IMG/VR virus record: IMGVR_UViG_2740892209_000015
DNA: 23,002 nucleotides
Source of the DNA: a virus
Taxonomy: Duplodnaviria > Heunggongvirae > Uroviricota > Caudoviricetes
Reading direction: 5' to 3' (one strand)
Shown here: piece after piece, positions 1,517 to 19,116 of the stretch
How positions within the stretch are numbered: the stretch's first letter is position 1
How the letters are laid out: every line of letters starts with the position of its first letter
The notes under the pieces: model-generated
Told to the model about the DNA's origin: nothing
Databases searched by the model: none
Seen by the model: the letters and a program-made list of their open reading frames with translations, nothing else
Position numbers and translations under genes: made by a program

Positions 1517-1869
1517 ATGTTTTCGAAATGGAAGGGTTTCTTCGTGGGAGATGTGTACCGCGAGATCTGAAAGTGAATGAAACAGATGCTGAATACCTGG
1601 TGCGTAAATTCGATGCGCTTGAAGCTAAATGTGCAGCACAGGAAAACAAAGTAATACCAGTGTCAACTGAACTGCCACCAGCAAATGAAAGTGTTTTGTT
1701 ATTCGATGCTAACGGAGAAGGCTGGCTAATTGGCTGGCGTTCTCTCTGGTACACCTGGGGACAAAAAGAAACCGGAGAATGGCAGTGGACATTTCAGGTC
1801 GGGGATCTTGAAAACGTCAATATCACTCACTGGGCAGTAATGCCAAAAGCACCGGAGGCTGGAGCATAA
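1507..1869 (+). CDS. Phage protein, DUF551-like (120 aa)
   Basis: Trp-rich C-terminal region (GWLIGW...HWAVMP) typical of DUF551 phage proteins. Stop overlaps the next start (TAATG). Confidence 0.6.
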   Translation: MRMNVFEMEGFLRGRCVPRDLKVNETDAEYLVRKFDALEAKCAAQENKVIPVSTELPPANESVLLFDANGEGWLIGWRSLWYTWGQKETGEWQWTFQVGDLENVNITHWAVMPKAPEAGA

Positions 1870-2174
1870 TGACCACTTTTACCGACAAAGAACTGATTAA
1901 AGAAATTAAAGAGCGTATCAGCAGCCTTGACGTGCGAGACGATATTGAGCGCCGTGCTTATGAAATCGCACTCCTATCTCTGGAAGTAGAACCAGATGAA
2001 CGCGAAGCTTATGAATTATTCATGGAAAAGCGTTTCGGTGACTTAGTAGATCGTCGGAGAGCAAAAAACGGCGATAACGAATACATGGCATGGGATATGA
2101 CTCTCGGTTGGATCGTCTGGCAGCAACGAGCTGGTATCCATTTTTCAACAATGTCACAACAAGAGGTGAAATAA
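1869..2174 (+). CDS. Hypothetical phage protein (101 aa)
   Basis: GGAGG-like RBS upstream. Stop and start overlap the neighbouring genes (TAATG at both ends), indicating an operon with xis-int. Confidence 0.55.
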   Translation: MTTFTDKELIKEIKERISSLDVRDDIERRAYEIALLSLEVEPDEREAYELFMEKRFGDLVDRRRAKNGDNEYMAWDMTLGWIVWQQRAGIHFSTMSQQEVK

Positions 2175-2524
2175 TGGAGCCATACAGCCTCACACTCGAT
2201 GAGGCCTGTCATTTTCTCAAGATATCCAGACCGACTGCCATTAACTGGATACGCACAGGGCGTCTTCAGGCAACACGCAAAGATCCCACTAAGAATAAAT
2301 CTCCTTACCTCACAACACGACAAGCCTGCATTGCGGCTCTTCAGTCTCCGCTGCATACTGTCCAGGTGAGCGCGGGTGATGGCATAACAGAGGAAAGAAA
2401 ATGTCACTCTTCCGCAGAGGTGAAATATGGTACGCCAGTTTCACATTGCCGAACGGTAAAAGATTTAAACAGTCTCTTGGAACAAAGGACAAAAGGCAGG
2501 CGACAGAACTCCATGACAAGCTAA
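2174..2524 (+). CDS. xis: Excisionase, P22 Xis-like (116 aa)
   Basis: [40 protein letters not shown]... resembles P22-type excisionase. GAGGTGA RBS. 3' end overlaps the int start, as in P22. Confidence 0.8.
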
Positions 2525-3564
2525 AGGCTGAAGCATGGCGGGTCAGCAAACTTGGTGAAATACCTGATATAACGTTCGAGGAAGCGTGTGTCAGGTGGCT
2601 TGAAGAGAAAGCACATAAAAAATCACTGGACGATGACAAAAGCCGGATCGGATTCTGGCTTCAACATTTCGCAGGAATGCAACTAAGAGACATTACTGAA
2701 TCAAAAATTTATTCAGCAATGCAGAAAATGACGAACCGGCGTCATGAGGAAAACTGGAAACTCAGGGCAGAAGCATGCAGAAAAAAAGGGAAACCTGTTC
2801 CAGAATACACGCCAAAACCGGCGTCCGTTGCAACGAAGGCTACGCATCTTTCATTTATAAAGGCCCTACTAAGAGCCGCAGAGCGTGAATGGAAAATGCT
2901 GGATAAGGCACCAATTATTAAAGTGCCTCAACCAAAGAATAAACGGATCCGCTGGCTGGAGCCCCATGAAGCACAAAGGCTGATTGATGAATGTCCGGAG
3001 CCATTAAAGTCTGTTGTTGAATTTGCACTGGCAACAGGCTTAAGACGCTCGAACATCATCAACCTTGAATGGCAACAAATAGATATGCAGCGCCGGGTGG
3101 CATGGATAAACCCGGAAGAGAGTAAATCAAACCGCGCAATTGGCGTTGCGCTGAATGATACTGCATGTCGCGTATTGAAAAAACAAATCGGGAATCATCA
3201 CCGTTGGGTATTTGTGTACAAGGAAAGCTGTACCAAACCAGACGGAACGAAAGCGCCAACAGTAAGGAAGATGCGGTATGACGCAAACACAGCCTGGAAA
3301 GCGGCGCTGAGACGGGCTGGTATTGATGATTTCAGATTTCACGACTTGAGACACACCTGGGCAAGTTGGCTGGTTCAAGCCGGAGTCCCGTTGTCAGTGT
3401 TACAGGAAATGGGAGGCTGGGAGTCTATCGAAATGGTTCGTCGATATGCTCACCTTGCACCTAATCACCTTACCGAACACGCACGGCAAATAGACTCGAT
3501 CCTGAACCCATCGGTCCCAAATTTGTCCCAGTCAAAAAATAAGGAAGGTACTAATGATGTGTAA
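2401..3564 (+). CDS. int: Tyrosine integrase, P22 / DLP12 IntD-like lambdoid family (387 aa)
   Basis: N-terminus [21 protein letters not shown]... and C-terminal catalytic HxxR ([10 protein letters not shown]) and Tyr (VRRYAHL) motifs. Reads toward a thrW-like att core immediately downstream. Confidence 0.9.
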
Positions 3565-3578: not shown

Positions 3579-3597
3579 TGGTGCGATAATAGGAACA
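3579..3597. repeat. Degenerate direct repeat of the thrW 3' end (att core, junction between the two elements)
   Basis: AATGGTGCGATAATAGGA here versus AATGGTGCCGATAATAGGA at 21557-21575 (one indel). Lies 15 nt after the int stop. Confidence 0.7.
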
Positions 3598-3656
3598 ATA
3601 CACATAGGCGATAAGCTTTGTTTTTGTTGCCTTTTTTATTGTTCATTTTTTATAGA

Positions 3657-3681
3657 TACCCCCAAAAGTACCCCCATATCT
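3657..3681. repeat. TACCCCCA-type direct repeat, candidate integrase arm-type site (copy 1)
   Basis: ATACCCCCAAAAGTACCCCCAT; near-identical copy at 21425-21450 in the same orientation, each just inside one island boundary. Confidence 0.5.
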
Positions 3682-3795
3682 TTTTCCGCCCCTGAAATTT
3701 GGTTGTTATTCATACAGCATATCAGGCGGTAACGCTCTCCCTTTAACCCACTTATTGTATGATAGTGCTATCCCACAATAAGGAATCAGCCAGCC

Positions 3796-4155
3796 ATGAG
3801 AATGACCAGCCGTAAAAAAGAGATACTCAGTTATTTTGAGCCGGATAACCTAGAATGGGTGACAGGTGAGATTGGTGCGCCGCCGTTCGATGTGTCGGGC
3901 GTGGCCTACCTGCTTCATGGCATGGTGTCGTTCGATAAGCGCCACCAGCTCGAATCAACCCGGCGCACACTGGAAAGCATGGTTGCTGGTGGACTGCTTG
4001 AGCGGGTGACAGTGTATGAATCGCGTCAGGTACGGCGCGGCGGTGAGACTAACGCAACGGTCGTGCGCTACGGTTTACCCGGTCACTGCGCTGTTATGCG
4101 CGATACTGGCGGCGCTGATAACGCAATATCAGGCGAATACATGCGGGTCAGTTAA
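3796..4155 (+). CDS. Hypothetical protein (119 aa)
   Basis: ORF with AAGGAA upstream of the ATG. Convergent 8-nt overlap with the downstream minus-strand gene. No family recognised. Confidence 0.45.
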   Translation: MRMTSRKKEILSYFEPDNLEWVTGEIGAPPFDVSGVAYLLHGMVSFDKRHQLESTRRTLESMVAGGLLERVTVYESRQVRRGGETNATVVRYGLPGHCAVMRDTGGADNAISGEYMRVS

Positions 4156-4690
4156 GAGCCTGCAATCTGTCGTTAATGTTGTTCAGGTCGTAAACCCGGC
4201 GTTCAATATCCAGCATCAGGAAATCGTGGATCTCGGCCTGTTCAGGATTATCAGACTCTCTGGCCTGTAAGAGCAATTCATTGTAACCATGCAAACCACC
4301 CGAATTTTCCGCCGGGGTAGTGCCCTTCCCGCGCAAACAGCTAACAGGCTGGATACTGGTATCATGTGTTTGCTTCTCCAGCACAACAAGGCAATCCCAC
4401 CAGTCGCCAAAGTCATACGTGTAAACCAGCTTGTCACCCTCATTCTGGAGCGCCGCCCATAGTGGCGTGATTGCCGCGTTACCCATGCTTTCATCCTCAC
4501 CCCATACGCGATACTCGCTACCTGGATCACCTTTACGCCCTTTCTCGAACATATACAGGTGTTCGTCATTCCAGCCAAAAGCTAACTGGATCACGGCATG
4601 AAGTTTACTAAAGGGGATTTGCTCTGGAACCAGCACACGCCGCCATATTGGTGGTTTGCTGTCTCGGATGGTTATCTTTATCTGGTACAT
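4148..4690 (-). CDS. PRiA4b ORF-3-like family protein (180 aa)
   Basis: N-terminal signature IKITIRDSKPPIWRRVLVP...LHAVIQLAFGWNDEHLYMF matches the pRiA4b ORF-3-like domain as I recall it. Confidence 0.65.
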   Translation of the reverse strand: MYQIKITIRDSKPPIWRRVLVPEQIPFSKLHAVIQLAFGWNDEHLYMFEKGRKGDPGSEYRVWGEDESMGNAAITPLWAALQNEGDKLVYTYDFGDWWDCLVVLEKQTHDTSIQPVSCLRGKGTTPAENSGGLHGYNELLLQARESDNPEQAEIHDFLMLDIERRVYDLNNINDRLQALN

Positions 4691-4733
4691 GCGTCGTGAA
4701 CCAATAGTGTACGTTTAGGTGGGTATTTTTCTG

Positions 4734-5168
4734 CTACTGACCAGGATAGAGCTGATGTGCCGGGTCAAGCCAGACAATATGGAATACATTACCGATGAAA
4801 AATCCATGTATGCGACCATATTCATTGCGCGATATGGCAAATTGATAAGGTGTATAACTCTGAAACTGTTCATTCAAATGCTGAAATCCCTTAGGTTCAG
4901 ATGTAGTTTGCCAATCAATCGGATGTGACTTCAACGAACCACCGCGATCGGTGGTGAACTCTCGTTCAGTCATAGTGGAAAGGTCTTTGAGGCGGTCTAA
5001 CACCTTGCAAAAATAAACAGGATTCTGAGCGCTGAAAGTAAATTTCTCATGCGCCGCATCGATATACCGAAAAGAAAAGTTGATGGTCGTTATGCCTGAA
5101 CCTGTTCCCCCAGGCACTATTTTTGTTTGCGAGGGTGCAATCTTCGACGCCCTGATTCTTTTCGCCAT
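4734..5168 (-). CDS. Hypothetical protein (144 aa), candidate toxin partner of the upstream Panacea-domain protein
   Basis: Start codon 2 nt after the stop of the upstream gene (tight coupling). No family recognised. Confidence 0.55.
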   Translation of the reverse strand: MAKRIRASKIAPSQTKIVPGGTGSGITTINFSFRYIDAAHEKFTFSAQNPVYFCKVLDRLKDLSTMTEREFTTDRGGSLKSHPIDWQTTSEPKGFQHLNEQFQSYTPYQFAISRNEYGRIHGFFIGNVFHIVWLDPAHQLYPGQ

Positions 5169-5170
5169 AT

Positions 5171-5626
5171 TTAGGAAGCCATCGAACGATAAAACTCAGC
5201 CGTTACACTTTTATCAATAACATTCTTGCACGGCGCATCTGATGGAACCCCTTCACGGGCCTCCAGCCACGGCTTTTCTTGGTGCGTCATCTGCTCCAGC
5301 TCATAAGCTGTATAACCGCCAAATACCTCATAGATTTCCTTTAGATGCTTTGACACATTCGCAGGTAACTCAGGGCAGGCAATCTCTTCGTCTATTGAGC
5401 GCCATTTGTAATCTGCAAATCTGGTATACAAATCTCTGGCTACAGGGCCATGTACCCATGCTTCAAACTTGTCAGCAACCAGTTCTTCGCCATCATTCAG
5501 CGCCATGAACCAAGCATCAGCATAGAACACCATTTTTTGCAGTTTCAGCGGGGTCATAACATCCCCATGCTCTTGAGCAAAGCAAAGCAGGTAATCCGCT
5601 ACGCTGTTAAGGGTTGTAACTGCCAT
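5171..5626 (-). CDS. Panacea-domain (DUF4065, SocA-like) protein, putative antitoxin (151 aa from the internal start)
   Basis: KLQKMVFYADAWFMALN...FEAWVHGPV...LYTRF matches the Panacea/DUF4065 signature. AGGAG RBS 7-8 nt before the ATG at 5626; the longer ORF starting at 5857 has no RBS. Confidence 0.65.
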   Translation of the reverse strand: MAVTTLNSVADYLLCFAQEHGDVMTPLKLQKMVFYADAWFMALNDGEELVADKFEAWVHGPVARDLYTRFADYKWRSIDEEIACPELPANVSKHLKEIYEVFGGYTAYELEQMTHQEKPWLEAREGVPSDAPCKNVIDKSVTAEFYRSMAS

Positions 5627-5947
5627 TATCCAATCTCCTGCCGTATGTTTTCGTCTATAACTGTCCACTACCGTTAATAATCGCATATAACCACGGGTAT
5701 TGCCCATCGTAAAATGCCATTTAAAGATTCTGCGTGATGGCTCACCATCCACCGCGCAAGATACCCGGTGCGTTTGGCTGATAATCCGCAATTTGGTTGA
5801 AACCGTCCTGGAAACCTCAAGTTTGGAAACCAGCGACTTGCATCGTAGCTTTGCCATTCGGCGGTCATAGTTACTGCTATATCCCTTTATTGGCGAGACC
5901 TGCGAGAGGTTTTGTTGTTCGAATATATAAAGGTGAATAAAGGTAAT

Positions 5948-6133
5948 CTACCTGCGCGGCGCAGGCTTCTTCCACTGGTAGGCGGGTGATCGCATCATTT
6001 CGCGAAATTTGTCACGCCGGGCTATATTGGCATTAACTGAGCGTTCTATCTCCCGTTGATCTGCCGGGGTTAGCTGGTGGCCTTCGTGCTCCAGTTTGGC
6101 GGTGGTCAATAAAGCTATTTCGCGTGGTGTCAT
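5948..6133 (-). CDS. Hypothetical small protein (61 aa)
   Basis: AGAGGG RBS-like sequence upstream of the ATG; basic C-terminus. No family recognised. Confidence 0.4.
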   Translation of the reverse strand: MTPREIALLTTAKLEHEGHQLTPADQREIERSVNANIARRDKFREMMRSPAYQWKKPAPRR

Positions 6134-6429
6134 ACGTCATACCCTCTGGAAGGATGAAACACGCCCGGATTAAATTTCATTTTTCGCGGGTATAAAAAAC
6201 GATGGGGCGGGCAGTCCCGGATAGTCAGGGCTGTAGAGATTTGACTACCCCCTCCCCACTGGATTCAGGTTACTGCTATTCCGTTAAGCGCTGCTTACGG
6301 GGATAGCTGCGTTGTGATTTTGACCATTCAGGTCGCCGCTATTTCCTCACCGATTGGGTGCTACGCGCGCGCGTACTTGTCCCGAAATACCAGAAACCGC
6401 CAGCCAGAGGATGATTTCCCTCTGGTGGT

Positions 6430-6711
6430 CTACCTTTGCCTCTTGCCGCCATTTAACCGGAAGGCGTTACCGTTCGGTTGCGCTATCCCCATGCGGTGTT
6501 GCGTTTCGGTAACAGCTTTATGCAGGTCGCCAAATTCCTCAACCTTCACGGGCGGGCGCTTCACGTTCTCCAGACACGTTTCACGGCGGCGCTTTATCCA
6601 TTCCCGATCATCGTCCTCGCTGCATAACAGCATGACTTCCATCCATCGTGCGGCAGCTCTCCGGTATAGCCCTTTTGACTCCAGCTCTTCAGCTTTCCTG
6701 TCCCTTATCAT
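6430..6711 (-). CDS. PerC-family transcriptional activator-like protein (93 aa)
   Basis: AEELESKGLYRRAAARWMEVM resembles the PerC family core. GAGAGG RBS and a TATAAT hexamer lie immediately upstream, abutting the left iteron cluster. Confidence 0.6.
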   Translation of the reverse strand: MIRDRKAEELESKGLYRRAAARWMEVMLLCSEDDDREWIKRRRETCLENVKRPPVKVEEFGDLHKAVTETQHRMGIAQPNGNAFRLNGGKRQR

Positions 6712-6740
6712 TTCTGCCTCTCAGATTATATAGATAAGCA

Positions 6741-6875
6741 AAAAGGTGTTGGTTCAGTTGGTTCAGTTGGTTCAATTTGTAAAGATCGTTGTTTTTATTA
6801 TGTTTTTTCTAAAATATTGAACCAACATCAACTCATTTTGAACCAACACAGCCCAGCTCTGAACCAACAACACAG
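6741..6875. repeat. Iteron cluster L (origin-like): 3 tandem GTTGGTTCA, AT-rich spacer, 3 inverted TGAACCAAC
   Basis: 6741-6785 is a perfect 45-bp inverted repeat of 12982-13026. Tandem 9-mers at 6748-6774; inverted copies at about 6818, 6839 and 6860; AT-rich core 6786-6816. Confidence 0.85.
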
Positions 6876-6970
6876 CGATAGCTTTGTGATTGGCCCGTTA
6901 TTTTCTGGCTGATATTTGATCGTATAACAGTGTTATACAGTGATATACTGTATGGATATTACTCACTGAT

Positions 6971-7426
6971 ATGGTCTTTGCAATGAGCAAATCTAATCTG
7001 GTCGCGTTCCGCATCCCATCTGAATTGCAGGATGAGTTTAATCGGTCTGTTCTCGCTTCTGGAGGGGATAAAACCTCCTGGCTTGTTGATGCGATTCGCA
7101 TGAAGCTGGGACAGCCGGAAAAGTCTATTGATTCACGAATGCTTGGGCTGGTGGAGCGCATGGAAAAAGCTGCTGCGTCGCTTATTGCCGGAAAGCCGAA
7201 CATCCCACCAAAGCCATATAACGAAACGGCAGTTATAAAGATCATTGCCGATACCATCCGACAGGGATTTGATAATGGGCGTGTGATAGCTGAACGGATC
7301 AATGAAGCAGGCTATCAAACAAAAGCTGGTAAAGCGTGGGATAAAGATATTTACAGCGCGTGGAAGCGTCAGGGAAGCAATGCTGAAAAGTTAAAAGCGG
7401 TGATTGATTGTAAGGTCAGCGTATAA
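6971..7426 (+). CDS. Ribbon-helix-helix (Arc/CopG-like) DNA-binding protein with a C-terminal recombinase-like HTH region (147-151 aa)
   Basis: N-terminal SKSNLVAFRIPSELQDEF is an RHH beta-strand/helix signature. C-terminal VIAERINEAGYQTKAGKAWDKDIYSAWKR resembles the DNA-binding motif of serine-recombinase 'recombinase' domains. Start is ambiguous (6971 or 6983). Confidence 0.6.
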   Translation: MVFAMSKSNLVAFRIPSELQDEFNRSVLASGGDKTSWLVDAIRMKLGQPEKSIDSRMLGLVERMEKAAASLIAGKPNIPPKPYNETAVIKIIADTIRQGFDNGRVIAERINEAGYQTKAGKAWDKDIYSAWKRQGSNAEKLKAVIDCKVSV

Positions 7427-7505
7427 ACATGAGTGCCCATTGGAAAGCTGCTTGGGCCAATACCTTTATACACCAGCAGGTGGTGACGATAGGTGAGGAT
7501 CAGGA

Positions 7506-7727
7506 ATGAAAGGCAGAACGCCACACATTGAACATCAAGCCAACCACTTCTCGGATGTTCGCAATGAGATGATTGCCATTCGCGGTGATATGCACGGCTT
7601 GGAGCGTCGAATTATTGATAAGATTGATGAAAATAGAGATAAGGCCAGTGAAAATCAAAAGTGGATCATCGGCCTGTTGATTTTATCAATTCTTATCCCG
7701 CTACTTATCGCATTGGTCACAAAATGA
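7506..7727 (+). CDS. Small membrane protein (73 aa), coiled-coil plus C-terminal TM helix, XhlA-like topology
   Basis: GGTGAGGA RBS. C-terminal WIIGLLILSILIPLLIALV hydrophobic helix after a charged helical region. Confidence 0.55.
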   Translation: MKGRTPHIEHQANHFSDVRNEMIAIRGDMHGLERRIIDKIDENRDKASENQKWIIGLLILSILIPLLIALVTK

Positions 7728-8251
7728 ATATCCAATGTGTATGCTGTCGATGCTACGCGCGCGTACTTGTCGCAAAATATCAGGCAAAGGCCAGATTCAG
7801 AATGTCGTGATAACCACCAGCACAACATGAGATGTCATGTAACGCGATTTATCACGTCAGATACATGTGATTGGTGTACCCGCATAAAACATTGTCATAG
7901 CGCGTCCTGTGCGCATATACGCCGATAATCAACACATCACCACCACTCTGTCTCATGTAGAGAACAGTTTTATGGTATCCCCCCGCCATCGTGTGCATAC
8001 TGGTCGGACGTAGTTGCAAAATTTTTTGCAACTGATACCCCTCGCACGCGTACTTGTCTCGAAATTGGTGTTTTGCTGTGGCAGTGATATCAGAAAAATC
8101 TTCCTGTTTCACATAAAGCGGATATGTGCGCACTGTAACGGCCCCATCAACGGGGATCGGATTTGAAATCCCGACCCAAGCTATGTACCAAATGCCATGT
8201 CTTGGATATATGATGATTGCCATTCTAAACAACGCTAAAGGGAGGGTTGGT

Positions 8252-8650
8252 GTGAATCAATTGAAGCGATTGGTTGTCTCCGGTTTATTATTTGCTTCTT
8301 TTGGAGCGAACGCTGAATGCTGGATTATTGGTGATCTGAAAGGACAAGAAGCCTCAAGTTCAGATGGGTATAACTATAAGTTATCATCTATACCAGATAC
8401 CTTTCATTTGGTAATAAGTAAAGAGAAGGCGGATCTTATCTTGGCAAAAGATGGTATAGGTGGAGGTATTGATTATTACCCGCTATCTCCGAATGCCATG
8501 ATGGGAAGAAGCTATCGAGATGGTCAACTGACGCTTGTCACATGGGCAATCTCAAATGACGGAAAAGTGATCCATACACGAACAATTAGTCGATCTGATA
8601 TAGGCTCATTTACAGGCTCATTTGTCGGCAATGTTAAAGGCAAGTGTTAA
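8252..8650 (+). CDS. Secreted/periplasmic protein with N-terminal signal peptide (132 aa, GTG start)
   Basis: AGGGAGGG RBS 5 nt before GTG at 8252. N-terminus KRLVVSGLLFASFGANA followed by a polar mature region. AT-rich. Convergent with the 701-aa gene. Confidence 0.55.
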   Translation: MNQLKRLVVSGLLFASFGANAECWIIGDLKGQEASSSDGYNYKLSSIPDTFHLVISKEKADLILAKDGIGGGIDYYPLSPNAMMGRSYRDGQLTLVTWAISNDGKVIHTRTISRSDIGSFTGSFVGNVKGKC

Positions 8651-8711
8651 TGTTCATAACTATTTGAAAAAATACTAATTACTATTATAACCAACCATCC
8701 ATGGCCATCTG

Positions 8712-10817
8712 TTATTGAGCTTCCTTTTGCGATGCTTGTGCTGCTGTGGTCAGTGATTGTGTGACCGTACTGATCGCTCTGTCATATGCTGTGCTACCTT
8801 TTGGCGTATTTGCCAGACGTAACAAGGCATTTCGTATAACAGGGCTTTCGTATGCCTTCGCTGCTCCGCCTACGACACCAGCAGCAGGAACAACAAACGC
8901 AGCCGTTTTTAGCATCCCCGCTAATACTGCTGCGTTTATGATGCCACCACCAACTAACAATCCATAAAGCTGCTGACCATTTAAGTTTTGAACGTTCGCT
9001 TTTGCCGCGTGTCTTGTATCGTTGAGGTATTTAATAACGCCGTCCAGTTCCTTTCCATGTATGCCTTTAAAGAAAGTTGCTGATTGCTTCCTGTTCCGGT
9101 GTAACGCATTAATAAACTTCTCAACACTGATATTTCCAGACGGATCAGTCGCCTTATCTACAGCATTCTGAACTATGGCTGCTCGTGCGTTTTGCCTACC
9201 ATTGTCATCCAGAAGCCTGTAAAGCTGAGAACGTTCTGATGGGCTTTGGCTAAAAACAAGTTTTGTTACATCCTCAGGCGTGGCCTTGCCGCTGGCTATT
9301 GCCTTTTGAACGCGCGTTCTTCCCATCATGTCATTGAATTTAGACCATGAGCGATCAACCCTTGCCATATTAATAGCTTCGTCTGCTCCAAGATTTTTGG
9401 CTACGGCTTTTTTCATATCCGCCGTATATGCCTTGTAGATAATATCGCTGGCTTTCTGGAGCGTATCTTTATCAACAGTGTCAGATGACGCCATAAATCG
9501 CTTTCGAAGATCGGTTCTGTTTTCCCTCGCCAGACGCAGGTCATTTGGTCCGCTGGTGATATCGTCTTTAAATTGCTGCAAGACTTTTACCGCGGCTCTA
9601 TCCTGAGATTTGCCCGGGCGGCTTAACACGGCAATCTGATTGTCGATAGCTTTTACCGTGTTTGAGAGATCGACAGGGGTATCCCCCATAGCGTCAATTA
9701 TGCGGTTATATCGCTTTCCTGCTGCCTCAATGAATTTTTGTTGCCCTTTAGTCGCAGATTCATAAAGCTGTTTATCAGAAATGCCACCCAGACCATCGCT
9801 AAATGTTCTGACTAAATTTTCTCGTGCTTGTTGTTGATTCAGCCGATTCTTACCGGTTCCAAAAAAAGGAACTCTTTCGCCTAATGTCTGAGCCTGACTC
9901 TGCATAAAGGTTTTATCTTTCAGCATGTCACTGGTCATTAACGGCAGATTTCTTTCCGATGCAAAGTCGACAGCAGCCTTTGCTTCAGGCGACATATCAC
10001 CACGAACAGCCCTCGAAACCGCACTCGCTGTATTTTCCAGCCCCTTACCAATACCACCAATGCCAGCAGAAATTACCGTTTGTAACGGATCAATATCTTC
10101 TCCACCAGCGAGGCTGGTGGCTCCCTGTAGTGCTAAATCTGTAGCTGCTGATTTCCCTATGGCCCCCAGCACCGTTCCGGCCCTGCCCGCTGGTGTAAAC
10201 GCCAGCGCATTAGCCAGAAACGATGCCACGTCTTGCGGCGATAAACCCGGCTTGTTCAGAGCATAATCACCGGATGGCAGGGAAACGATAGTGTTACCCT
10301 TCTCATCCTGCCTTAATTTCGCTCCCATGCTCTGAAGAATCTTTTCCTGAGATGCGTCAGAGCCGAAAAGTTGAGACCATCGAGCTTTTAGAGCATCCAT
10401 GCTGAGTGAGGTTAACTCTGGGGCAAGGTCGACATTTTGCAGTCTCTCCATCTCTGGAGTCATTCGGCTTTCGCCTGTTATAGCATCGCGCATCGCAGCC
10501 CCAAGACTGGCTCCCTGTTCTGCTGAACGCTCAAGCCCCTCTCTTTGCTGAGTAGCTAACTTTGCATACCCTGACGCAATAGAATTATCAGATGATGTAT
10601 GTTGAATATTTTGAGTTGCTGATTGGGATCGGTCTATTTCATTCGTTGATGGTAGTGGATAGGCAGCATAAAAAGCCTGCTTAGCCTGCTCTACACTTTC
10701 TCCGGCTTGCGGGGCAACGACTTCATTGAAGTATTGCTCCTGAGCCTGCGCTTTTTGTTCTGGTGCTAACGCCTGATACTGTGGAGAGGCGATAACATCT
10801 TTCCATGCTTTAGCCAT
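8712..10817 (-). CDS. Large uncharacterised protein (701 aa); A/Q/K-rich, predicted helical, C-terminal hydrophobic hairpin
   Basis: Long ORF with GGGGTGA RBS, start overlapping the upstream stop (TAATG). Two adjacent hydrophobic stretches near the C-terminus (LYGLLVGGGIINAAVLAGML / AAFVVPAAGVVGGAA). No domain recognised. Confidence 0.8.
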   Translation of the reverse strand: MAKAWKDVIASPQYQALAPEQKAQAQEQYFNEVVAPQAGESVEQAKQAFYAAYPLPSTNEIDRSQSATQNIQHTSSDNSIASGYAKLATQQREGLERSAEQGASLGAAMRDAITGESRMTPEMERLQNVDLAPELTSLSMDALKARWSQLFGSDASQEKILQSMGAKLRQDEKGNTIVSLPSGDYALNKPGLSPQDVASFLANALAFTPAGRAGTVLGAIGKSAATDLALQGATSLAGGEDIDPLQTVISAGIGGIGKGLENTASAVSRAVRGDMSPEAKAAVDFASERNLPLMTSDMLKDKTFMQSQAQTLGERVPFFGTGKNRLNQQQARENLVRTFSDGLGGISDKQLYESATKGQQKFIEAAGKRYNRIIDAMGDTPVDLSNTVKAIDNQIAVLSRPGKSQDRAAVKVLQQFKDDITSGPNDLRLARENRTDLRKRFMASSDTVDKDTLQKASDIIYKAYTADMKKAVAKNLGADEAINMARVDRSWSKFNDMMGRTRVQKAIASGKATPEDVTKLVFSQSPSERSQLYRLLDDNGRQNARAAIVQNAVDKATDPSGNISVEKFINALHRNRKQSATFFKGIHGKELDGVIKYLNDTRHAAKANVQNLNGQQLYGLLVGGGIINAAVLAGMLKTAAFVVPAAGVVGGAAKAYESPVIRNALLRLANTPKGSTAYDRAISTVTQSLTTAAQASQKEAQ

Positions 10818-12283
10818 TAATCACCCCATAGTGAAGAAAAGTTACTGCTGGCTGCTGGCTGTGATACCTGCTCAGATTGCGGCAATGTCTGCGACGAAGA
10901 AGAAGTTCCTCTGTCAACTGCTGAAATAACCCGCAAAGCATCATAAGTTCGACCAGAAGCAGCTTTCAGCGAATTGAACTGGTTTTCCATCTTCCGGCGC
11001 TTGGTATCAATGGTTTTTGTGGAGTCGCCAGGCTGAGGGAAATACATTTGATAATATTTTGACATTTCAGCAGGTGCGATAGCTGCCCCTGTTTCCTGAC
11101 GGAGTATTGCCATTATTGCGTCATTAGCATTAACAACGTATTGCTGCTCTGCTGGGCTGAGCGTTAAGTTAGCCAGCGTCCCATTACCCAAAGCATTATT
11201 AATGATCGCCACTCGCTGTGGGCTAAGCTGGTCTTTCAGTGTATCTATTGAATCAAGAGCATCCCTAACCCTGTATGCAAATCCAGCAGCTTTTTTAGCC
11301 CCTTCTGGCGACTTTTCCATGATCTTTTGGGCTGTTGGCAAAGCTATTGGACGAAACCCATCTCCAGATATTGGCTGGTTTAGTTTTCCCTGCTCTTCAC
11401 TTCCGTCTGTGTAGTATTTTGTGACAGTGCCATCATCGTTTTCTCTAACACTCATTAATTTTTTGGTGTTTGTATTAATTCCAGCCGCTGCCGCAAATGC
11501 CGCCGCCCCCTCTGGATCAGCCTTTAACATTTGCGCGTACTGATTGTAATTCTGCATTGCTGCTGTTGGTGCATATGCTGACGTTAACGCATTTGCTCGG
11601 CTAATATCCTGCCCTCTCGCCTGAAGTGCTTCACCAGCTTTATTGCTGCGAATCGTCTCTGCCAACTCGCCACGCTCAATATCCCGACCCTCCATTCGAT
11701 CTTTGATATCGAAGTACTTCTCATGACCGAGAGAAAACAGCGCCAGATTACCTGCGAAATGCTGGAAGCCCTGCGGGTCATTAACCTGCATTTCAGCAAT
11801 AGTTTCTGGAGGGATACCTAAACGACGCATCTCCTGCTCATTATCCATCATGAACCTGCCAAATGCGCCCGGACCAAGCGATGAGGCTACCTGTGCTTTA
11901 AGCGCCAGATTGCCATAATCATCCCTTTGAGCATCATCGACATAACTCATCCCTTTACGGACTTCCTCAAACTCTTCGGGGAATGCTGTAATAAGATTAC
12001 GCATCTGCTCCCTGTCGCCGGACGCATAAGCATCTGCATAACCTTTCTGGAATGCCGCTTTACGCTCCTGCTGTTGCTGCTGCTTATAAATGTCAGCAAC
12101 TCCAGCCAGACCACGAAGGCCTGTCAGAGCAACGTTATTTGCACCTGATCGAGCCAGTTCATTGTTTTCGCGGATCAGACCAAGCGTTGCGTTAATGTCG
12201 CTTGCCTTTGGCGCATTCTCGTTTTGCGCACCAATGCCAGCCAGAAAACCACCAGAATTAATACCCTGTTGCCACGTAGCCAT
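10817..12283 (-). CDS. Large uncharacterised protein (~488 aa); poly-Q stretch, A/G/Q-rich
   Basis: Long ORF. ATG at 12283 is 4 nt after the stop of the 57-aa ORF; the track's GTG at 12295 is the alternative start. No domain recognised. Confidence 0.75.
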   Translation of the reverse strand: MATWQQGINSGGFLAGIGAQNENAPKASDINATLGLIRENNELARSGANNVALTGLRGLAGVADIYKQQQQQERKAAFQKGYADAYASGDREQMRNLITAFPEEFEEVRKGMSYVDDAQRDDYGNLALKAQVASSLGPGAFGRFMMDNEQEMRRLGIPPETIAEMQVNDPQGFQHFAGNLALFSLGHEKYFDIKDRMEGRDIERGELAETIRSNKAGEALQARGQDISRANALTSAYAPTAAMQNYNQYAQMLKADPEGAAAFAAAAGINTNTKKLMSVRENDDGTVTKYYTDGSEEQGKLNQPISGDGFRPIALPTAQKIMEKSPEGAKKAAGFAYRVRDALDSIDTLKDQLSPQRVAIINNALGNGTLANLTLSPAEQQYVVNANDAIMAILRQETGAAIAPAEMSKYYQMYFPQPGDSTKTIDTKRRKMENQFNSLKAASGRTYDALRVISAVDRGTSSSSQTLPQSEQVSQPAASSNFSSLWGD

Positions 12284-12287
12284 AAAT

Positions 12288-12461
12288 TTACCCACGTCCA
12301 GTTAAAGTGTAAGCCAGCGCCTTATCCATTAATCCCCGAGCAATTTCGTGGATCGTTGGCGCAACTCCTACCTCTGATTTTTTACGCTGCTCCTCCTGAA
12401 TTTTCTTTATCGCTTCCATTTGCTTCTCACTTATCAATACCGGCTTTACTGAAATAGCCAT
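12288..12461 (-). CDS. Small protein (57 aa), possible RHH-like DNA-binding protein; first gene of the operon
   Basis: Below the ORF-track size cutoff; found manually. AAGGGGG RBS 5 nt upstream of the ATG. Sequence MAISVKPVLISEKQMEAIKKIQEEQRKKSEVGVAPTIHEIARGLMDKALAYTLTGRG. Confidence 0.5.
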   Translation of the reverse strand: MAISVKPVLISEKQMEAIKKIQEEQRKKSEVGVAPTIHEIARGLMDKALAYTLTGRG

Positions 12462-12475
12462 AACGCCCCCTTAGA

Positions 12476-12495
12476 ACTGTATAAAACAACAGTTA
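12476..12495. promoter_or_regulatory. LexA-box-like palindrome (CTGT-N8-ACAG) overlapping a TATAAT -10 element upstream of the 57/488/701 operon
   Basis: AACTGTATAAAACAACAGTT on the plus strand. The minus-strand TATAAT (plus 12495-12500) lies directly adjacent, about 35 nt upstream of the ATG. Confidence 0.45.
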
Positions 12496-12554
12496 TTATA
12501 GTTTCACAAATCGCAATATTCATCATCGTAATTGCAAAATATGAAACAAACAGC

Positions 12555-12590
12555 ACAAAAAAATGCCACCGCTCAGTAGCTGGTGGCATC
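12555..12590 (-). terminator. Rho-independent terminator (minus strand) between the iteron cluster and the cargo operon
   Basis: Plus strand shows an A7 run followed by hairpin TGCCACC-N11-GGTGGCA. On the minus strand this is a GC-rich hairpin followed by a U-run. Confidence 0.55.
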
Positions 12591-12904
12591 GTTCTGTGTG
12601 TCAGGTTTTGACAGGTTTTTTATGGACTCTAAAAACTATATTTATGGTGTCGCATTACTCTTCACGGCAGGCGCTTTTCAGTTCTGCCCTTGCTTCTGGC
12701 TCCATTGGTAATTTGATTCGCGATCAGCTATGCGGATGGTTTGCTGAACAGGCATAACAACTTCTCAGGGGCTGTTTTCTGAACTACGAAAATTTCGTAT
12801 TGCTCACTTTCAAAACGTCACGCCCTTGTACACAGGATTTTACGAAAGTCTCGTAAAACACTCTCTGATGCCAGCCAGGTGTTGTGCGCATCAATTCAGT
12901 CACA

Positions 12905-13026
12905 TTGTGTTGGTTCAAAATACCGTGTTGTTGGTTCAGTGTTGGTTCAATAAAAAGAATAAAATCCTTATAAAACAATACTCTTTACAAATTGAACCAA
13001 CTGAACCAACTGAACCAACACCTTTT
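12905..13026. repeat. Iteron cluster R (origin-like), inverted copy of cluster L; 22 nt downstream of the primase stop
   Basis: 12982-13026 is a perfect 45-bp inverted repeat of 6741-6785. Additional GTTGGTTCA copies at about 12908, 12930 and 12941; AT-rich core between. Confidence 0.85.
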
Positions 13027-13044
13027 CTACGCACATGAATAAGC

Positions 13045-15801
13045 TCATTCTTCAGATGAGTTGTAATCTCCTGGCTGGTAATTGAGTACATAAACGTTTA
13101 TTTGTCGTCCCTGAATACGTGGTGATTTTCTTTGGTATCCACGACCGCTGTTTGGTGGGGTTAGCATCCCGGCTTTTTTCAACACTTCAGCAAACTGTTT
13201 TGCGTTGAAACCACATGCGATCTCCTTTTCAAATGTGGCCGGGAATGTGTAGAAAATCATTGGACTTTCGTCATGTTCTCCACGCTGACGGTATCCGGCT
13301 AAATCTTTGATGGGCAAATCTGCCGGGCTGTATGGAAATGGTGCAAAACGGCTAAGCCCATAGGCATTAAGAAATGCCTCCGTTTGTTCAATAATCTGCT
13401 GATGCTCTTTGTTACCTGTGCCGAACTCGCGCAACCATGCGTTATAGCTGTGCTGTATCGCATCACGGCATGTCTGAGCATCCCAGCCTGTTACAACCTC
13501 GCCTAACAACAATGCGGCCTCCAGAATGGCAAATCGCGCGGCTACACGGTGAACCTGCTCACCATAATCGGATGGGATCAGGCTTCTCCATCTGCTTTCG
13601 CAATCACGAACAGTTTTAATAGCCTGTTGCTGGTGGTCTGCCAGCCATTTAATCCACTCACGCCCGGCTGCGCCATGGTGATGCTGGTAAGCGTCTTTCA
13701 GTGCGTCTGCGTGCTGTTTTCCGTTCTGGTAATCGTGAAAGCGTACTGCTTTACTCAACGGAATATTCAGCAGTCGCACCAGTTGCCCGGCTTTGGTTTT
13801 TCGCCCGGAAGTAGCGATAAATGTTTCTAAATCCATTTCTCCGGTGCTGATTGCCACTGTACGCCAGCGTTTTAGATCCCGGTTTCCACCATCTTTAGCG
13901 CCTTGCAGTTTCCCTACACCGTTAAATAACGCATAGGCAGACTGTGAAACGCTGACAGGATCAGCGCCCTGACCAACTTCATCAAGCGGCATTAATCCGT
14001 CATTGTGGGCGGCGGCCTCATTTGCCAGCCCCAGCGCGGTTCCGTACCACGTCAGCCGCAGTAAATCAGGGTTGCCGTATAAGCTGCTCGCCACGTTTGC
14101 CGTGGTGGTCTTACCCGCGCTCGACTGCTCATAGAAATGAATGCCGAACCCGTCAGCGCCCACCAGCCCAATCAATGGCGCTGCCAGTGCTGCGCCGATC
14201 CCGGTCATCATTGAATAGTTACCAAAGGCCAGACGCGCCACGTTATCACGCCAGCTTTTCGCGCTCCCTGAGACGGTATATCCGGCTGCGGCTGAGCTTC
14301 TCCCGCTGAACAGCACAGGATTTTCAGGTGTTCCGATGATTTCCCCATCAGGCATGATGTACGCTCCGCATTGCCAGCCAGTGGCATGAGCAACACGCCA
14401 CAATTCACGAGAGCCACTGCGTTGTAGCCAGTCTGCCAGTATTGCTCTGAGGCTGCTTTTGGTCGTGACATTTACCCCACCAGCTTTAAGTGTGCGCCAT
14501 CCTTCACGTTCACCAATATCAGCCAGTGGAATGGCAGCGGTTGTCGGCGTTTCAGAACCAAACGACAGCCAGCGAAGAATGAGATACTGGTCTTTATCGT
14601 CTCTGCCAGTACCGATAACGCTTAACGGAGAACATAACCAGCTTTCGTTATTGATGATTTCTCCACTCTGGCTGTCAGCTCTCGGAGATACCCAATAAAT
14701 ACCATCCTCGCGGCTTTCTATTCTTGGTTTCAGTGGGTCGGTATCCATAACCTTAAAATCGCTTCCCTCAATGGTCTGTGGCTCCTGTTTCACGCCATTA
14801 CCCTGTGGTTGGTACATTGACTTATTGAACGCTTCTGTGGCGCATTTAATGCCGTGTTTTTGGTGGTAATCATTCCAGTCTGCTTTGTGATCTGTCGGGG
14901 GTAATGCCACCCATCCAGAAACAGATAAAGCTGCTTTTTCTGCTGCTATTCTCCCCGTGTTTTGTCTTCCTTCGCTGTGGTCGTTATCCGCAGCAATGAT
15001 GATTTGTGCTGAAGGAAATTTATCCCGCAGTACCTGGGCGACATATAACAGGTTCCCGGCATCAATCGCCGCCACTGTCAGCGCCTCTGGACGAATTAAA
15101 TGGACAGATAATGCCGTTGCCAGCCCTTCTGCGATTAAGATGCTCTGTGTTGTTTCTGGTGCGTTTATGGCGTGATATGCCCCTCGCTTTGCTGAACCTG
15201 TCAGGAGTCTTTTTTCACCATGTGAGGTAATAGTCTGTGCTGCTGTGACTGCGCCGGATTTATCCACCAGCGCCAGCAACAGAGATCCATCGGGCAACAC
15301 GGGGAATGTAAAATCACCTACCCCTTTCGCAACCAGATAATCAGATTTGCCGTTTACAGCCTTTCTGCGCATGTCATCAAACTGACGGGAAAACGTATCC
15401 CGTCTTTGTTGTTCGTCCTTCTCTGCCCTTTTCAGGCGCTCCTGTTCGCGTCGCTGGCGCTCGGTTTCCAGTTGTTCCCGTTTCTGGCTGGTGGCTTCTG
15501 GTGTTTCCGTTGTCCGGTAATCAATACCCAGAACATCAGCGGCAAGAAGCGCCGCCTCTGTTGTGTCGCAGTTATTTACGCGTTTAATTAAATCCAGCCC
15601 ATCACCAGCGCCGCACTGATTACAGATGAAGCTACCGCGCCCGTTGTCATCGAACCGGAATCGATCTTTGCCCCCACATGCAGGGCAGGGAGCATGACGG
15701 CGCGGAGAGTCAGGGACATTTATGTTCAGGCAGCCCAGCACATGAGGCCAGTTGTTTTCAGACGCACTGATAACCTGACGGATAAGATCAATGTTTCGCA
15801 T
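13045..15801 (-). CDS. Replicative primase / replication initiation protein (918 aa): N-terminal zinc ribbon, TOPRIM-like domain, C-terminal NTPase-like region; P4 alpha / PICI Pri-Rep analogue
   Basis: CPACGG...CNQCG zinc ribbon. TOPRIM-like acidic motifs (LIAEGLATA; IIAADNDHSEG). ACGGGGG RBS. Iteron cluster lies immediately 3' of the gene. Confidence 0.8.
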   Translation of the reverse strand: MRNIDLIRQVISASENNWPHVLGCLNINVPDSPRRHAPCPACGGKDRFRFDDNGRGSFICNQCGAGDGLDLIKRVNNCDTTEAALLAADVLGIDYRTTETPEATSQKREQLETERQRREQERLKRAEKDEQQRRDTFSRQFDDMRRKAVNGKSDYLVAKGVGDFTFPVLPDGSLLLALVDKSGAVTAAQTITSHGEKRLLTGSAKRGAYHAINAPETTQSILIAEGLATALSVHLIRPEALTVAAIDAGNLLYVAQVLRDKFPSAQIIIAADNDHSEGRQNTGRIAAEKAALSVSGWVALPPTDHKADWNDYHQKHGIKCATEAFNKSMYQPQGNGVKQEPQTIEGSDFKVMDTDPLKPRIESREDGIYWVSPRADSQSGEIINNESWLCSPLSVIGTGRDDKDQYLILRWLSFGSETPTTAAIPLADIGEREGWRTLKAGGVNVTTKSSLRAILADWLQRSGSRELWRVAHATGWQCGAYIMPDGEIIGTPENPVLFSGRSSAAAGYTVSGSAKSWRDNVARLAFGNYSMMTGIGAALAAPLIGLVGADGFGIHFYEQSSAGKTTTANVASSLYGNPDLLRLTWYGTALGLANEAAAHNDGLMPLDEVGQGADPVSVSQSAYALFNGVGKLQGAKDGGNRDLKRWRTVAISTGEMDLETFIATSGRKTKAGQLVRLLNIPLSKAVRFHDYQNGKQHADALKDAYQHHHGAAGREWIKWLADHQQQAIKTVRDCESRWRSLIPSDYGEQVHRVAARFAILEAALLLGEVVTGWDAQTCRDAIQHSYNAWLREFGTGNKEHQQIIEQTEAFLNAYGLSRFAPFPYSPADLPIKDLAGYRQRGEHDESPMIFYTFPATFEKEIACGFNAKQFAEVLKKAGMLTPPNSGRGYQRKSPRIQGRQINVYVLNYQPGDYNSSEE

Positions 15802-15813
15802 TCTGGCCCCCGT

Positions 15814-16416
15814 TTAGTGCGTCACTGGTGCTTCTGGGATGCCGTTTTCGTTTAGTTCGGCAATAAAGCTGTTGTGAAGATCGGCAAGCACTTCTCGCCC
15901 AAACGAAGTGAGTGTTCCCTGTTCAACATCGAACATGTTGCTGTAAAAAATGATGGCATTCTTTGTTCCGACATCAACACCATATTTCTCGATCATTGCG
16001 CCCTCAATGTTGTTTGCCATAGCGAGGCGCTCTGCTACTGGATACAGCGGCATGGCGACGATGCCATTGGAATAAACAGAAACCACGGAATGATTGCCAC
16101 TGTCATCAATAATGCTGACGGTGCCGTTTTCCTTTCTCATTTCATTGATGAATGCTGTTGCTATCAGCCAGCGCCACATAATCACGTGATGCTGTGATGT
16201 GTAATCGAAATATCCCTGGTTGCCGCCACTGGCAATAGCGAGATGTATAAACATGCCTTCATCTGGTTTATCGTCATAATCCCCGGCATCCAGACGATTT
16301 ACGGCATCAATATATGAGACGGTCTCAACGCGTTCTGTCATGCCATCGTTGCTGCGGTACATGATGTTTACGCCGTCAGGCGTTGCTTCTGCATGGAAAG
16401 TTAAGAAATTATTCAT
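15814..16416 (-). CDS. Hypothetical protein (200 aa from the internal ATG)
   Basis: ATG at 16416 overlaps the upstream stop by 8 nt; RBS-like GAGG upstream. The track's longer N-terminal extension lacks an RBS. Confidence 0.55.
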   Translation of the reverse strand: MNNFLTFHAEATPDGVNIMYRSNDGMTERVETVSYIDAVNRLDAGDYDDKPDEGMFIHLAIASGGNQGYFDYTSQHHVIMWRWLIATAFINEMRKENGTVSIIDDSGNHSVVSVYSNGIVAMPLYPVAERLAMANNIEGAMIEKYGVDVGTKNAIIFYSNMFDVEQGTLTSFGREVLADLHNSFIAELNENGIPEAPVTH

Positions 16417-16630
16417 GTTTCGCCTCGCCTGAATGATTCTGTAACTCATATTTGCCCAACAATTCGTCCGCTTCCTGAATAGCTTCTGGTACGCCATTGA
16501 GCAGTGACATAACCGCGCCAATCATTAACTTGTCTCTGTTGCTGGGGCTGGCCCCTTCAAGCCAGAACCCTAAAACAGTCTGAACCTGTTCGATGCGACA
16601 TTGCGCTTCAATGAGCTGGATGTTGGTCAT
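16409..16630 (-). CDS. Hypothetical small protein (73 aa)
   Basis: GGAGAG RBS; ATGA start/stop overlap with the upstream gene. Confidence 0.55.
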   Translation of the reverse strand: MTNIQLIEAQCRIEQVQTVLGFWLEGASPSNRDKLMIGAVMSLLNGVPEAIQEADELLGKYELQNHSGEAKHE

Positions 16631-16890
16631 TTCGCACTCTCCACATCGATTAAACCGAGATCTATCAGGGAGGTAACTTTTTGTAGCCAGCTATTGATTA
16701 CTGTCGCCTGTTCCCCTCCCACCGAGGGAACAATCTCATTCATCACATGAACCAGACCTGTGCGCGCTCTGGTAAGCCGTTCAGTCGCGCAATCTGCGGG
16801 AGTGAATGTGTCTGGATATGGCTCTTCACGGCTCAGCAATGATTCAATTTCCAGCTCACACGGATGACGATAAATTAAGTTGATATTCAT
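16627..16890 (-). CDS. Hypothetical small protein (87 aa)
   Basis: GGGGGTGA RBS; ATGA overlap with the upstream gene. Confidence 0.55.
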   Translation of the reverse strand: MNINLIYRHPCELEIESLLSREEPYPDTFTPADCATERLTRARTGLVHVMNEIVPSVGGEQATVINSWLQKVTSLIDLGLIDVESAK

Positions 16891-17081
16891 TTTTCACCCC
16901 CAAGAATTACCAGCTCGGCACGGGCATCGTTAACCAAAGATGAGCACGCTTTAATCGCATCCACGACATCAGCAGCGTCCATTTCTTCAGCCGAAAGACT
17001 GACAGCAACCAGGACAGCCGCTGCTTGCTCGATTAATTGAAGTGCGGACGTAAGGCGAGGGGTATTAATTGAGTTATTCAT
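16887..17081 (-). CDS. Hypothetical small protein (64 aa from the internal ATG)
   Basis: ATG at 17081 with ACGGGGG RBS, overlapping the upstream stop by 8 nt. Confidence 0.5.
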   Translation of the reverse strand: MNNSINTPRLTSALQLIEQAAAVLVAVSLSAEEMDAADVVDAIKACSSLVNDARAELVILGGEK

Positions 17082-17292
17082 TGGTTGCCCCCGTTTTGCA
17101 TGGCATTTGTCCACCTTCCAGCAGGAAATGAACGTCACGAACGGCGAGATCCAATATCGCGAGTAACGCCTTCAGTCTTTCGTCTCGTGAGGGAGAGTTG
17201 CTCACCAGAATGTCGTTAATCACTTCTGTCAGTGTGATGATCTGGCTTGTGCGTTCGAGGGGATCCATATGCACATCGTAGGTTTTAATCAT
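17074..17292 (-). CDS. Hypothetical small protein (72 aa)
   Basis: ATG at 17292 preceded by GGAGGTGG, overlapping the stop of the 64-aa ORF (ATGATTAA). In frame with the long 342-aa track ORF but most likely an independent gene. Confidence 0.5.
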   Translation of the reverse strand: MIKTYDVHMDPLERTSQIITLTEVINDILVSNSPSRDERLKALLAILDLAVRDVHFLLEGGQMPCKTGATNE

Positions 17293-17479
17293 GTGCCACC
17301 TCCATGCGGATACGACCAGCAAAAAAGCAGACGTGATCGCGCACCAGAGAACGGCGAGCATCGCGTTCAGACTCGGCAGCAATATGATGAATTTTGGCGG
17401 TAATTGTCGGGCAATCGCGGCGAACTGCGGCGATAATCCAGATAAATTGCGGTTTTGGGGTAGGGGTAGTAGCCAGCAT
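17285..17479 (-). CDS. Hypothetical small protein (64 aa)
   Basis: Strong AAGGAGG RBS 7 nt upstream of the ATG at 17479. Different frame from the long track ORF that covers it. Confidence 0.5.
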   Translation of the reverse strand: MLATTPTPKPQFIWIIAAVRRDCPTITAKIHHIAAESERDARRSLVRDHVCFFAGRIRMEVAHD

Positions 17480-17641
17480 GTGGCAGCCTCCTTGATTGAT
17501 GGTTTATAGCCACCGCCCAAGAGACCAATCTTGCTGGCGGTGGACTGTACGGAGTTGGCCTTACTGGCAATCAAGGAAACCAGCCTACCCGAAGGTAGCC
17601 CCATACAGCCCACCATTGATAAGGTGTGCGTGTGCGCCGAT

Positions 17642-17664
17642 ACAAAAAAAGACGCTGGCGCGTC
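17642..17664 (-). terminator. Candidate intrinsic terminator (minus strand) inside the long track ORF
   Basis: On the minus strand: hairpin GACGC-GCCA-GCGTC followed by a U7 run. Confidence 0.45.
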
Positions 17665-19104: not shown

Positions 19105-19116
19105 TTTCAGTCTCCG

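Follow-up and report, generated by a model that had tools for sequence, protein, structure and literature searches.

Phage-inducible chromosomal islands (PICIs), a widespread kind of phage satellite, mobilize genes for virulence and defence. In the island EcCICFT073, the origin of replication lies immediately 3' of the pri-rep gene (Fillol-Salom 2018, PMC6092414), and the origins of PICIs and of Staphylococcus aureus pathogenicity islands (SaPIs) are described as two oppositely oriented iteron sets on either side of an AT-rich region 3' of pri-rep (PMC6092414, PMC9371898). The Rep proteins of SaPI1 and SaPI5 read their iterons through a C-terminal winged-helix domain, and the loading of two hexamers has been proposed (PMC9371898). 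In the papers that can be searched, the PICI origin is a single iteron/AT-rich unit next to pri-rep, which is used as a hallmark of the class; no PICI or other satellite with a dual, bipartite or second origin turned up in searchable papers, subscription-only ones apart. Here, we analyse a stretch of 23,002 nucleotides from a virus of the Caudoviricetes (IMG/VR record IMGVR_UViG_2740892209_000015; hereafter the window), which, judged by its genes, carries a PICI of the EcCIMP1 type. Two clusters of iterons, units A and B, lie kilobases apart in this island, the first of them directly downstream of the gene for the primase-helicase-initiator Pri. The type of origin and the island family are already known; what is new is the candidate two-unit origin, with its dimorphism between compact (fused) and split forms, which is undescribed in searchable papers. 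From sequence comparison, we consider it probable that A and B are two units of one PICI replication origin and that B works in cis with A.

Unit A (12906-13026) and unit B (6741-6870), to neither of which a strand is assigned, follow the same plan of ~130 bp, in which a 44-nt AT-rich spacer separates three tandem TTGGTTCAR 9-mers from three inverted copies. A preliminary description of the window had recognized this arrangement, and its statement that 6741-6785 and 12982-13026 are exact reverse complements was confirmed by direct reading and by a repeat finder. The inverted match between the units reaches 55 nt at 95% (6741-6795/12972-13026), and two further inverted matches, I2 and I10, span the inner copies of both clusters; thus, each ~130-bp cluster is as a whole an inverted copy of the other. 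We estimate the chance of finding a perfect inverted repeat of 45 nt in 23 kb at about 1e-19. The 8-mer TTGGTTCA is found 14 times in the window against an expectation of 1.03, a number that 0 of 100 shuffles reached, and 12 of the 14 copies fall within the two clusters: at 6749, 6758 and 6767 (+) and 6818, 6839 and 6860 (-) in the left cluster, B, and at 12910, 12931 and 12942 (+) and 12993, 13002 and 13011 (-) in the right cluster, A. The tandem 9-mers thus occupy 6749-6775 on the + strand in B and 12993-13019 on the - strand in A, the orientation of B being inverted with respect to A. The spacers are 84% AT in both units and differ in sequence. Since the spacing of the inner iterons is 21+21 in B and 21+11 in A, the units are paralogous rather than identical. 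The edge of A is 18 nt from the stop codon of Pri (13045-13047), where 22 nt had been reported; the iteron-origin architecture proposed for both clusters holds, and A sits directly after the primase gene as PICI and SaPI origins do.

Related loci from many Enterobacterales were collected by iteron pattern or by homology to Pri. A unit is located 18-60 nt after the Pri stop codon in ~140 of them, the cluster sequence is present in ~640 of 5426 complete E. coli genomes, and related elements were found in Leclercia, Cedecea, Enterobacter, Erwinia, Pantoea and Serratia. Unit A and the reverse complement of unit B were aligned from 18 split elements, the Pri proteins of which are 66-100% identical. 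In this alignment, every A unit has an inner spacing of 11+21 and a spacer of the A type, whereas every B unit has an inner spacing of 21+21(22) and a spacer of the B type; the part common to both is the tandem triple plus ATTTGTAAAGA. Despite its diverged sequence, the B spacer remains 77-84% AT and 44 nt long in effectively all 18 elements, the one that reads 53 nt doing so solely through a mutated third tandem copy. Because the features of each type are constant in distant relatives, the perfect 45 bp is a conserved arm, and B is an old paralogue of A under constraint. A recent duplication as the source of the 45 bp was rejected since A and B are distinct lineages conserved in these relatives.

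The distance between the units varies widely and their relative orientation does not. In ~25 relatives, A and B stand back to back as one double origin of ~255-310 bp right after pri, with the tandem triples pointing outward; the distal half of one such fused origin (L190) is orthologous to B of the window (86% over 133 bp). In split elements, A and B are 4.8-13.8 kb apart, inverted with respect to each other and identically so in every case, and the separation reaches 12.6 kb and 13.8 kb in the complete E. coli islands of EC2001 and LR-33, respectively. All seven islands that could be read end to end hold two units, six of them split (the window, CP53, MP1, strain 165, EC2001 and LR-33) and one compact (19AR0656). 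B lies before the gene for the PerC-family regulator in the E. coli thrW and yicC types, beside A in the compact types, and at the island end without an adjoining PerC gene in L207, EC2001 (where it is ~240 bp from the end) and LR-33.

Two side observations concern the fate of these units in individual strains. A decayed remnant in E. coli UTME-6 (L252) has lost Pri, unit A and the integrase, and holds h119, PRiA4, h61, PerC, unit B and an AlpA-like gene. In E. coli 19AR0656 (L255, 20346-22946), the fused double origin is directly followed by an unusual local amplification of an SSB gene, with three partial copies and one full copy in tandem at a period of ~713 bp.

Pri (13045-15801, - strand) is a protein of 918 residues, identified by Pfam, by the structure PDB 8TCH and by PHROG phrog_1139 (DNA primase). 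Its N-terminus consists of a zinc ribbon and a Toprim_3 domain that resemble P4 alpha, followed in the Pfam annotation by a DUF927 helicase like that of SaPI Rep; the solved structure of a SaPI 'pathogenicity island protein' (PDB 8TCH) matches residues 402-813 with E=1e-11. The region of Pri that covaries with the iteron comprises the C-terminal 58-60 or so residues (roughly 13048-13224). Some relatives have another iteron after pri, namely AGACAACA, GTGGTTCA, ACGGGTTA, TCGGTTCA or CGGGTTCA, each in ~10-12 copies, and what sets their Pri apart from the Pri of the TTGGTTCA type is found mostly in the final ~58 residues. In pairs whose helicase domains are at least 85% identical (such pairs are not independent of one another), the mean identity of the C-termini is 82% for a shared iteron and 51% for different iterons. 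The variable patch falls at approximately residues 880-905, and the users of GTGGTTCA have the same altered C-terminal patch on two different Pri backbones. Furthermore, both halves of fused double origins bear the iteron of their own group. This covariation fits binding by the primase. That A is the origin of the island is well supported, as is the prediction that Pri recognizes the iterons through its C-terminus. B is likely to be bound by Pri too, since it is conserved, has the same iterons and, in every specificity group, changes its iteron along with Pri.

Some more distant relatives show that this arrangement is not universal. In L245 (~4575-4700) and also in L246, L248 and L249, with a Pri that is 52% identical, no iteron cluster follows pri; one complete unit of the A type, built from the TCGGTTCA iteron with three tandem copies, a 44-nt AT spacer and inner copies spaced 11+21, stands directly after the integrase gene and before alpA. 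Thus, across the wider family, the origin unit is not tied to the 3' side of pri.

We propose that the C-terminal domain of Pri reads TTGGTTCAR iterons on both sides of the 44-nt AT-rich stretch, and that Pri would then melt this stretch and load itself, probably as two hexamers. B would be a second Pri-binding unit with full origin geometry and part of the same origin system, which in the lineage of the window would have been split by the gp20/gp16-like module that now lies between A and B. Most likely, B acts in cis with A as a second site of initiation or of Pri loading, at a variable distance and in a fixed orientation, in a role that would resemble that of crr plus ori in P4 or that of the auxiliary iteron loci of iteron plasmids. 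The retention of both units in 7/7 complete islands is the only, indirect hint that both are needed in cis. The sequences show the architecture, its conservation, the compact and split forms, the covariation of iteron and C-terminus and the lack of inversion; the binding of Pri and any replication role of B are what we infer, and any specific role for B is held less firmly than the statement as a whole.

Several observations weigh against this proposal. Since the C-terminus of Pri and unit A are adjacent on the DNA, inheritance as a block may explain part of the covariation; in L245, where the origin unit is 5 kb from pri, the C-terminus is too diverged to serve as an unlinked comparison. A single-sequence AlphaFold model of the C-terminal domain reached a pLDDT of 49.6, and a profile search of the PDB with this domain gave no match. 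The B-half of four fused origins (L177, L182, L186 and L201) has a GC-rich stretch in place of the AT spacer before its outer tandem repeats, and there B looks like a binding site rather than a melting site. Lastly, ~17 loci display one unit only; all of them end at most 10 kb downstream of Pri and therefore cannot be counted for or against. A separate class of single-unit relatives built on these loci is therefore unproven, as none of them includes an island terminus and similar complete islands have B 12.6-13.8 kb away.

The GC-rich halves also bear on the view that B is mainly a Pri-responsive regulatory site, since such halves cannot be melting sites. B would then be either an operator over the divergent PerC/c151 promoter region or a locus for copy-number control, comparable to incA of P1 and incC of F, which titrate or handcuff the initiator. 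The position of B gives this view further ground: it lies in a divergent intergenic region, with PerC on the left and c151 on the right, its edge (6741) is 29 nt upstream of the PerC start codon, and the first B iteron is 38 bp upstream of that codon in the window, MP1, strain 165 and several IMG/VR loci. Nevertheless, the linkage to PerC is not general, being absent in L207, EC2001 and LR-33, and the invariant 44-nt spacer of ~80% AT and the phased inner iterons are not needed in a simple operator or titration site. A strict scan for sigma-70 consensus promoters was empty at both units, for which reason a promoter or operator reading of the units was rejected. Nor is there support for shared operators for two convergent operons, as first suggested: B lies in a divergent region and A in a co-directional read-through region. 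We regard a mainly regulatory B as unlikely. The sole signal of the promoter/terminator scan is a terminator-like hairpin with a T-run at 12580-12565 (- strand), between unit A and the c57/gp20-like operon, which overlaps the start of a doubtful + strand ORF (12563-12757).

A bolder version of the two-unit origin is speculative, and we give it a low probability. A and B would form an obligatory two-site origin for a self-loading helicase of the SaPI type, at which Pri assemblies loop across 0-14 kb in order to fire. The pair could also aid a switch from theta replication to concatemers, by recombination between the arms behind the fork as in the yeast 2-micron plasmid, for headful packaging by P22-like helpers, and it could delimit a helper-matched cassette. 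Kapi1, the helper of EcCIMP1, is presumably P22-like. If this version were true, the pair would be a PICI counterpart of the P4 ori/crr sites that arose with an unrelated initiator domain.

The DNA between the units (~6.0-6.2 kb in the window) is mainly a module of ejection proteins like gp20 and gp16 of phage P22. The gp20 homologue (10817-12295, - strand) is an ejection protein of the Inj_translocase family (PF16928, 1.6e-84; phrog_917, 2.8e-144) with megablast matches to P22-like phages. The gp16 homologue (8712-10817, - strand) is a DNA transfer/ejection protein of 701 residues (phrog_770, 2.1e-161, full length), and its megablast matches are annotated 'DNA transfer protein'. Both homologies are full-length, so that the genes first described as enclosed accessory cargo are indeed bracketed by the units but are not generic. 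The module is headed by c57 (12288-12461, - strand), a small conserved ORF that was traced with tblastn maps and lies downstream of the origin in most relatives. At the end near B, four small ORFs without assigned function, c151 (6971-7426, +), c73 (7506-7727, +), c126 (7852-8232, -) and c174 (8126-8650, +), form the most variable part among close relatives. PADLOC gave no match to a defence system for 10 ORFs in and around the segment, and a reading of the cargo as a defence system was rejected on this basis. The equivalent genes of EcCIMP1 are suspected by the authors of its description to be a helper-exploitation module (PMC11773190). The fused origin pair of L200 and L202 does not enclose the gp20/gp16-like module, which stands outside it; thus, bracketing of the module by the units is specific to certain lineages.

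Alignment of related islands, which had been suggested as a check, shows cargo that varies while the clusters and their outer flanks are conserved among close relatives, the bracketed DNA being a mosaic between conserved anchors. Among eight E. coli-type elements with Pri 3' ends 98.7-99.8% identical, the inter-unit segment is 6.0-8.4 kb and 13-100% alignable between pairs. The B unit of L176 looks like a recombinant with its breakpoint inside the unit. In E. coli strain 165 (L254, 17197-27593), the block of Pri, A, gp20/gp16 module, B and PerC stands between yicC and dinD in an island that has another integrase and another att site, and the bracketed segment includes an Abi-family gene; replication genes and module thus move as a block between integration backbones. 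All three observations would suit the view that the units persist chiefly as homology anchors for swapping the helper-specific module between co-resident satellites, with little role for B in replication. However, on the side of A, the window and MP1 remain homologous for ~600 bp past A, to about 12313, which means that the units do not form sharp breakpoints. This view also leaves the length of the AT spacer, the inverted orientation and the fused double origins unexplained, and mosaic modules are expected in satellites anyway. We consider it very unlikely. Of the earlier suggestion that the clusters are recombination targets for cargo exchange, the variation between conserved units stands, but the breakpoints between the window and MP1 are not at A, and inversion of the segment was not seen in 637 genomes. 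That the perfect 45-bp inverted repeat flanking the segment marks the ends of a composite transposon, an invertase switch or another mobile cassette can practically be discarded, since there is no target-site duplication (9-nt outer flanks AGATAAGCA versus CTACGCACA), as had already been stated, the Pfam and PHROG annotation of the ORFs gave no transposase, invertase or recombinase inside the segment, a synthetic inverted junction was matched in 0 of 637 E. coli genomes carrying these sequences (the native PerC-B-c151 junction being present at 80% coverage or more in 115 of them), and the supposed termini are fused with nothing between them in relatives.

One copy of a 28-nt direct repeat, CGCGCGCGTACTTGTCCCGAAATACCAG, is placed just downstream of perC (6366-6393) and two are inside the bracketed segment (7756-7783 and 8043-8070), the copies being 79-89% identical. 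Given the weak PerC-like and h61-like matches near B in relatives, the repeat may stem from remnants of perC-like paralogues.

The island as a whole spans ~18 kb (3579-21578), as delimited by its att cores and by comparison with EcCIMP1. The att core AATGGTGC(C)GATAATAGGA is present at ~3579-3596 and ~21559-21578, and the second copy overlaps the 3' end of a tRNA-Thr(CGT) gene (21559-21634) that adjoins proA. The - strand carries the genes for a P4-type integrase (20179-21393), AlpA (19548-19751), an AntA/B antirepressor (18271-19104) and Ash (17074-18102), followed by Pri and, just outside unit B, the PerC-family regulator (6430-6711, - strand; Pfam PF06069, 1.2e-30). The PerC gene matches EcCIMP1_025 in position and family, and the flank that bears it is 96% identical to MP1. 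We identify the island as a PICI because it combines int, AlpA, AntA/B, Ash, a Pri of the TOPRIM-DUF927 type and PerC at tRNA-Thr next to proA. The following features of EcCIMP1-like PICIs of Gram-negative bacteria are found here: int, alpA and pri-rep with unidirectional transcription, a size of 10-20 kb, a specific att site, and no capsid or lysis genes.

Other observations concern the ends of the island and its left neighbour. A 22-nt repeat, ATACCCCCA[A/T]AAGTACCCCCAT, lies near both island ends (3656-3677 and 21425-21446), each copy consisting of an internal direct repeat of ACCCCCA, and these repeats are probably arm-type binding sites of the integrase. Outside the left att site (1-3564), the window carries the gene for another tyrosine integrase (2401-3564, +) together with phage-like ORFs (DUF551 and an HD/YfbR-like protein), which suggests that a further element has integrated in tandem at this tRNA-Thr site. 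This neighbour is comparable to the 'adjacent unclassified island' reported beside EcCIMP1. At the accessory end of the island, a SocA/Panacea-domain protein (5171-5857, -) and an ORF of 144 residues (4734-5168, -) resemble a toxin-antitoxin pair, which L211 and L238 have and CP53 and MP1 lack; PADLOC gave no match to it.

In the family described here, the halves of the origin may be fused or up to 14 kb apart while keeping their orientation, their geometry and the match of their specificity to the initiator. If B is needed in cis, the family would provide a natural system for long-range communication between origin sites by a self-loading helicase, and it would change both the annotation of satellite origins and the design of minimal PICI replicons for delivery vectors. 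The specificity groups of iteron and C-terminus, in addition, constitute a set of predicted orthogonal initiator-origin pairs.

Beyond the satellites, iteron plasmids also have extra clusters of initiator iterons outside their minimal origin (incA of P1, incC of F and the distant R6K origins), and these auxiliary loci act in cis or in trans through initiator-mediated pairing. Unlike A and B, they have no AT-rich unwinding region between inverted iterons, and the plasmid initiators are winged-helix proteins of the RepA type rather than helicases.

In phage P4, an 8-9-mer bound by the initiator is clustered at two sites that are separated by kilobases, and one site stands directly 3' of the primase gene; two separated clusters of one repeat in this arrangement are also found in the window. 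The N-terminal zinc-ribbon/Toprim primase of P4 alpha is homologous to that of Pri (33% identity, E=6e-42). The remainder of alpha, however, is D5_N/DUF5906/Pox_D5 rather than DUF927, and a comparison of the C-termini of alpha and Pri with hhalign gave a probability of 0.5%, with no similarity detected. Pri is thus not an initiator of the alpha type, which joins a primase to a D5-like SF3 helicase and Pox_D5, and membership of its helicase and origin-binding half in the alpha family was rejected on the DUF927 and 8TCH matches and the dissimilar C-terminus. The sites differ as well: in the P4 record, two direct repeats of 120 bp directly 3' of alpha make up crr, and ori, with extra type-2 repeats, is found at a distance of 4.7 kb, upstream of the alpha operon on its other side, whereas the sites of the window are inverted paralogues that both lie downstream of pri and can be fused. 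Since crr is made of direct repeats, ori stands across the alpha operon and Pri shares just the N-terminal primase, the parallel drawn in the preliminary description with ori and crr holds only as a functional analogy between pairs of separated repeat sites, and no family assignment follows from it.

Among described islands, a close match is EcCIMP1 of E. coli MP1; phage Kapi1 induces and transfers this island (PMC11773190). Like the window island, it occupies the tRNA-Thr site between proA and yagU, and its int, AlpA, AntA/B, Ash, Pri and PerC genes, in flanks that are 93-99% identical in DNA sequence, are joined by DNA-transfer-like genes downstream of the primase. EcCIMP1 also holds both units, 8.4 kb apart; a term search of the paper that describes it found no discussion of an origin or an inverted repeat (PMC11773190). 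The two islands differ in the inter-unit module, which in EcCIMP1 is 8.4 kb long with DUF2824, gp7-like, gp20-like and transglycosylase genes, compared with 6.0 kb in the window, and only 17% of it can be aligned.

With the PICI and SaPI origins, the locus shares a position 3' of pri-rep, 6-12 short iterons, an AT-rich centre, an initiator with a DUF927-type helicase and a C-terminal region of that initiator which tracks iteron specificity. The fold of this region in Pri is not confirmed as the winged helix of the known initiators. Opposed sets of iterons around an AT-rich region are found in A and in B alike, with three copies per side. A lies immediately 3' of pri; B stands at a distance of 6.2 kb in the window, but ~25 relatives have it joined to A. 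The plasmid maintenance assay used for EcCICFT073 measures autonomous replication from pri-rep and ori (PMC6092414). The published descriptions of such origins that could be read give a single unit, whereas the family of the window has two, fused or up to 13.8 kb apart.

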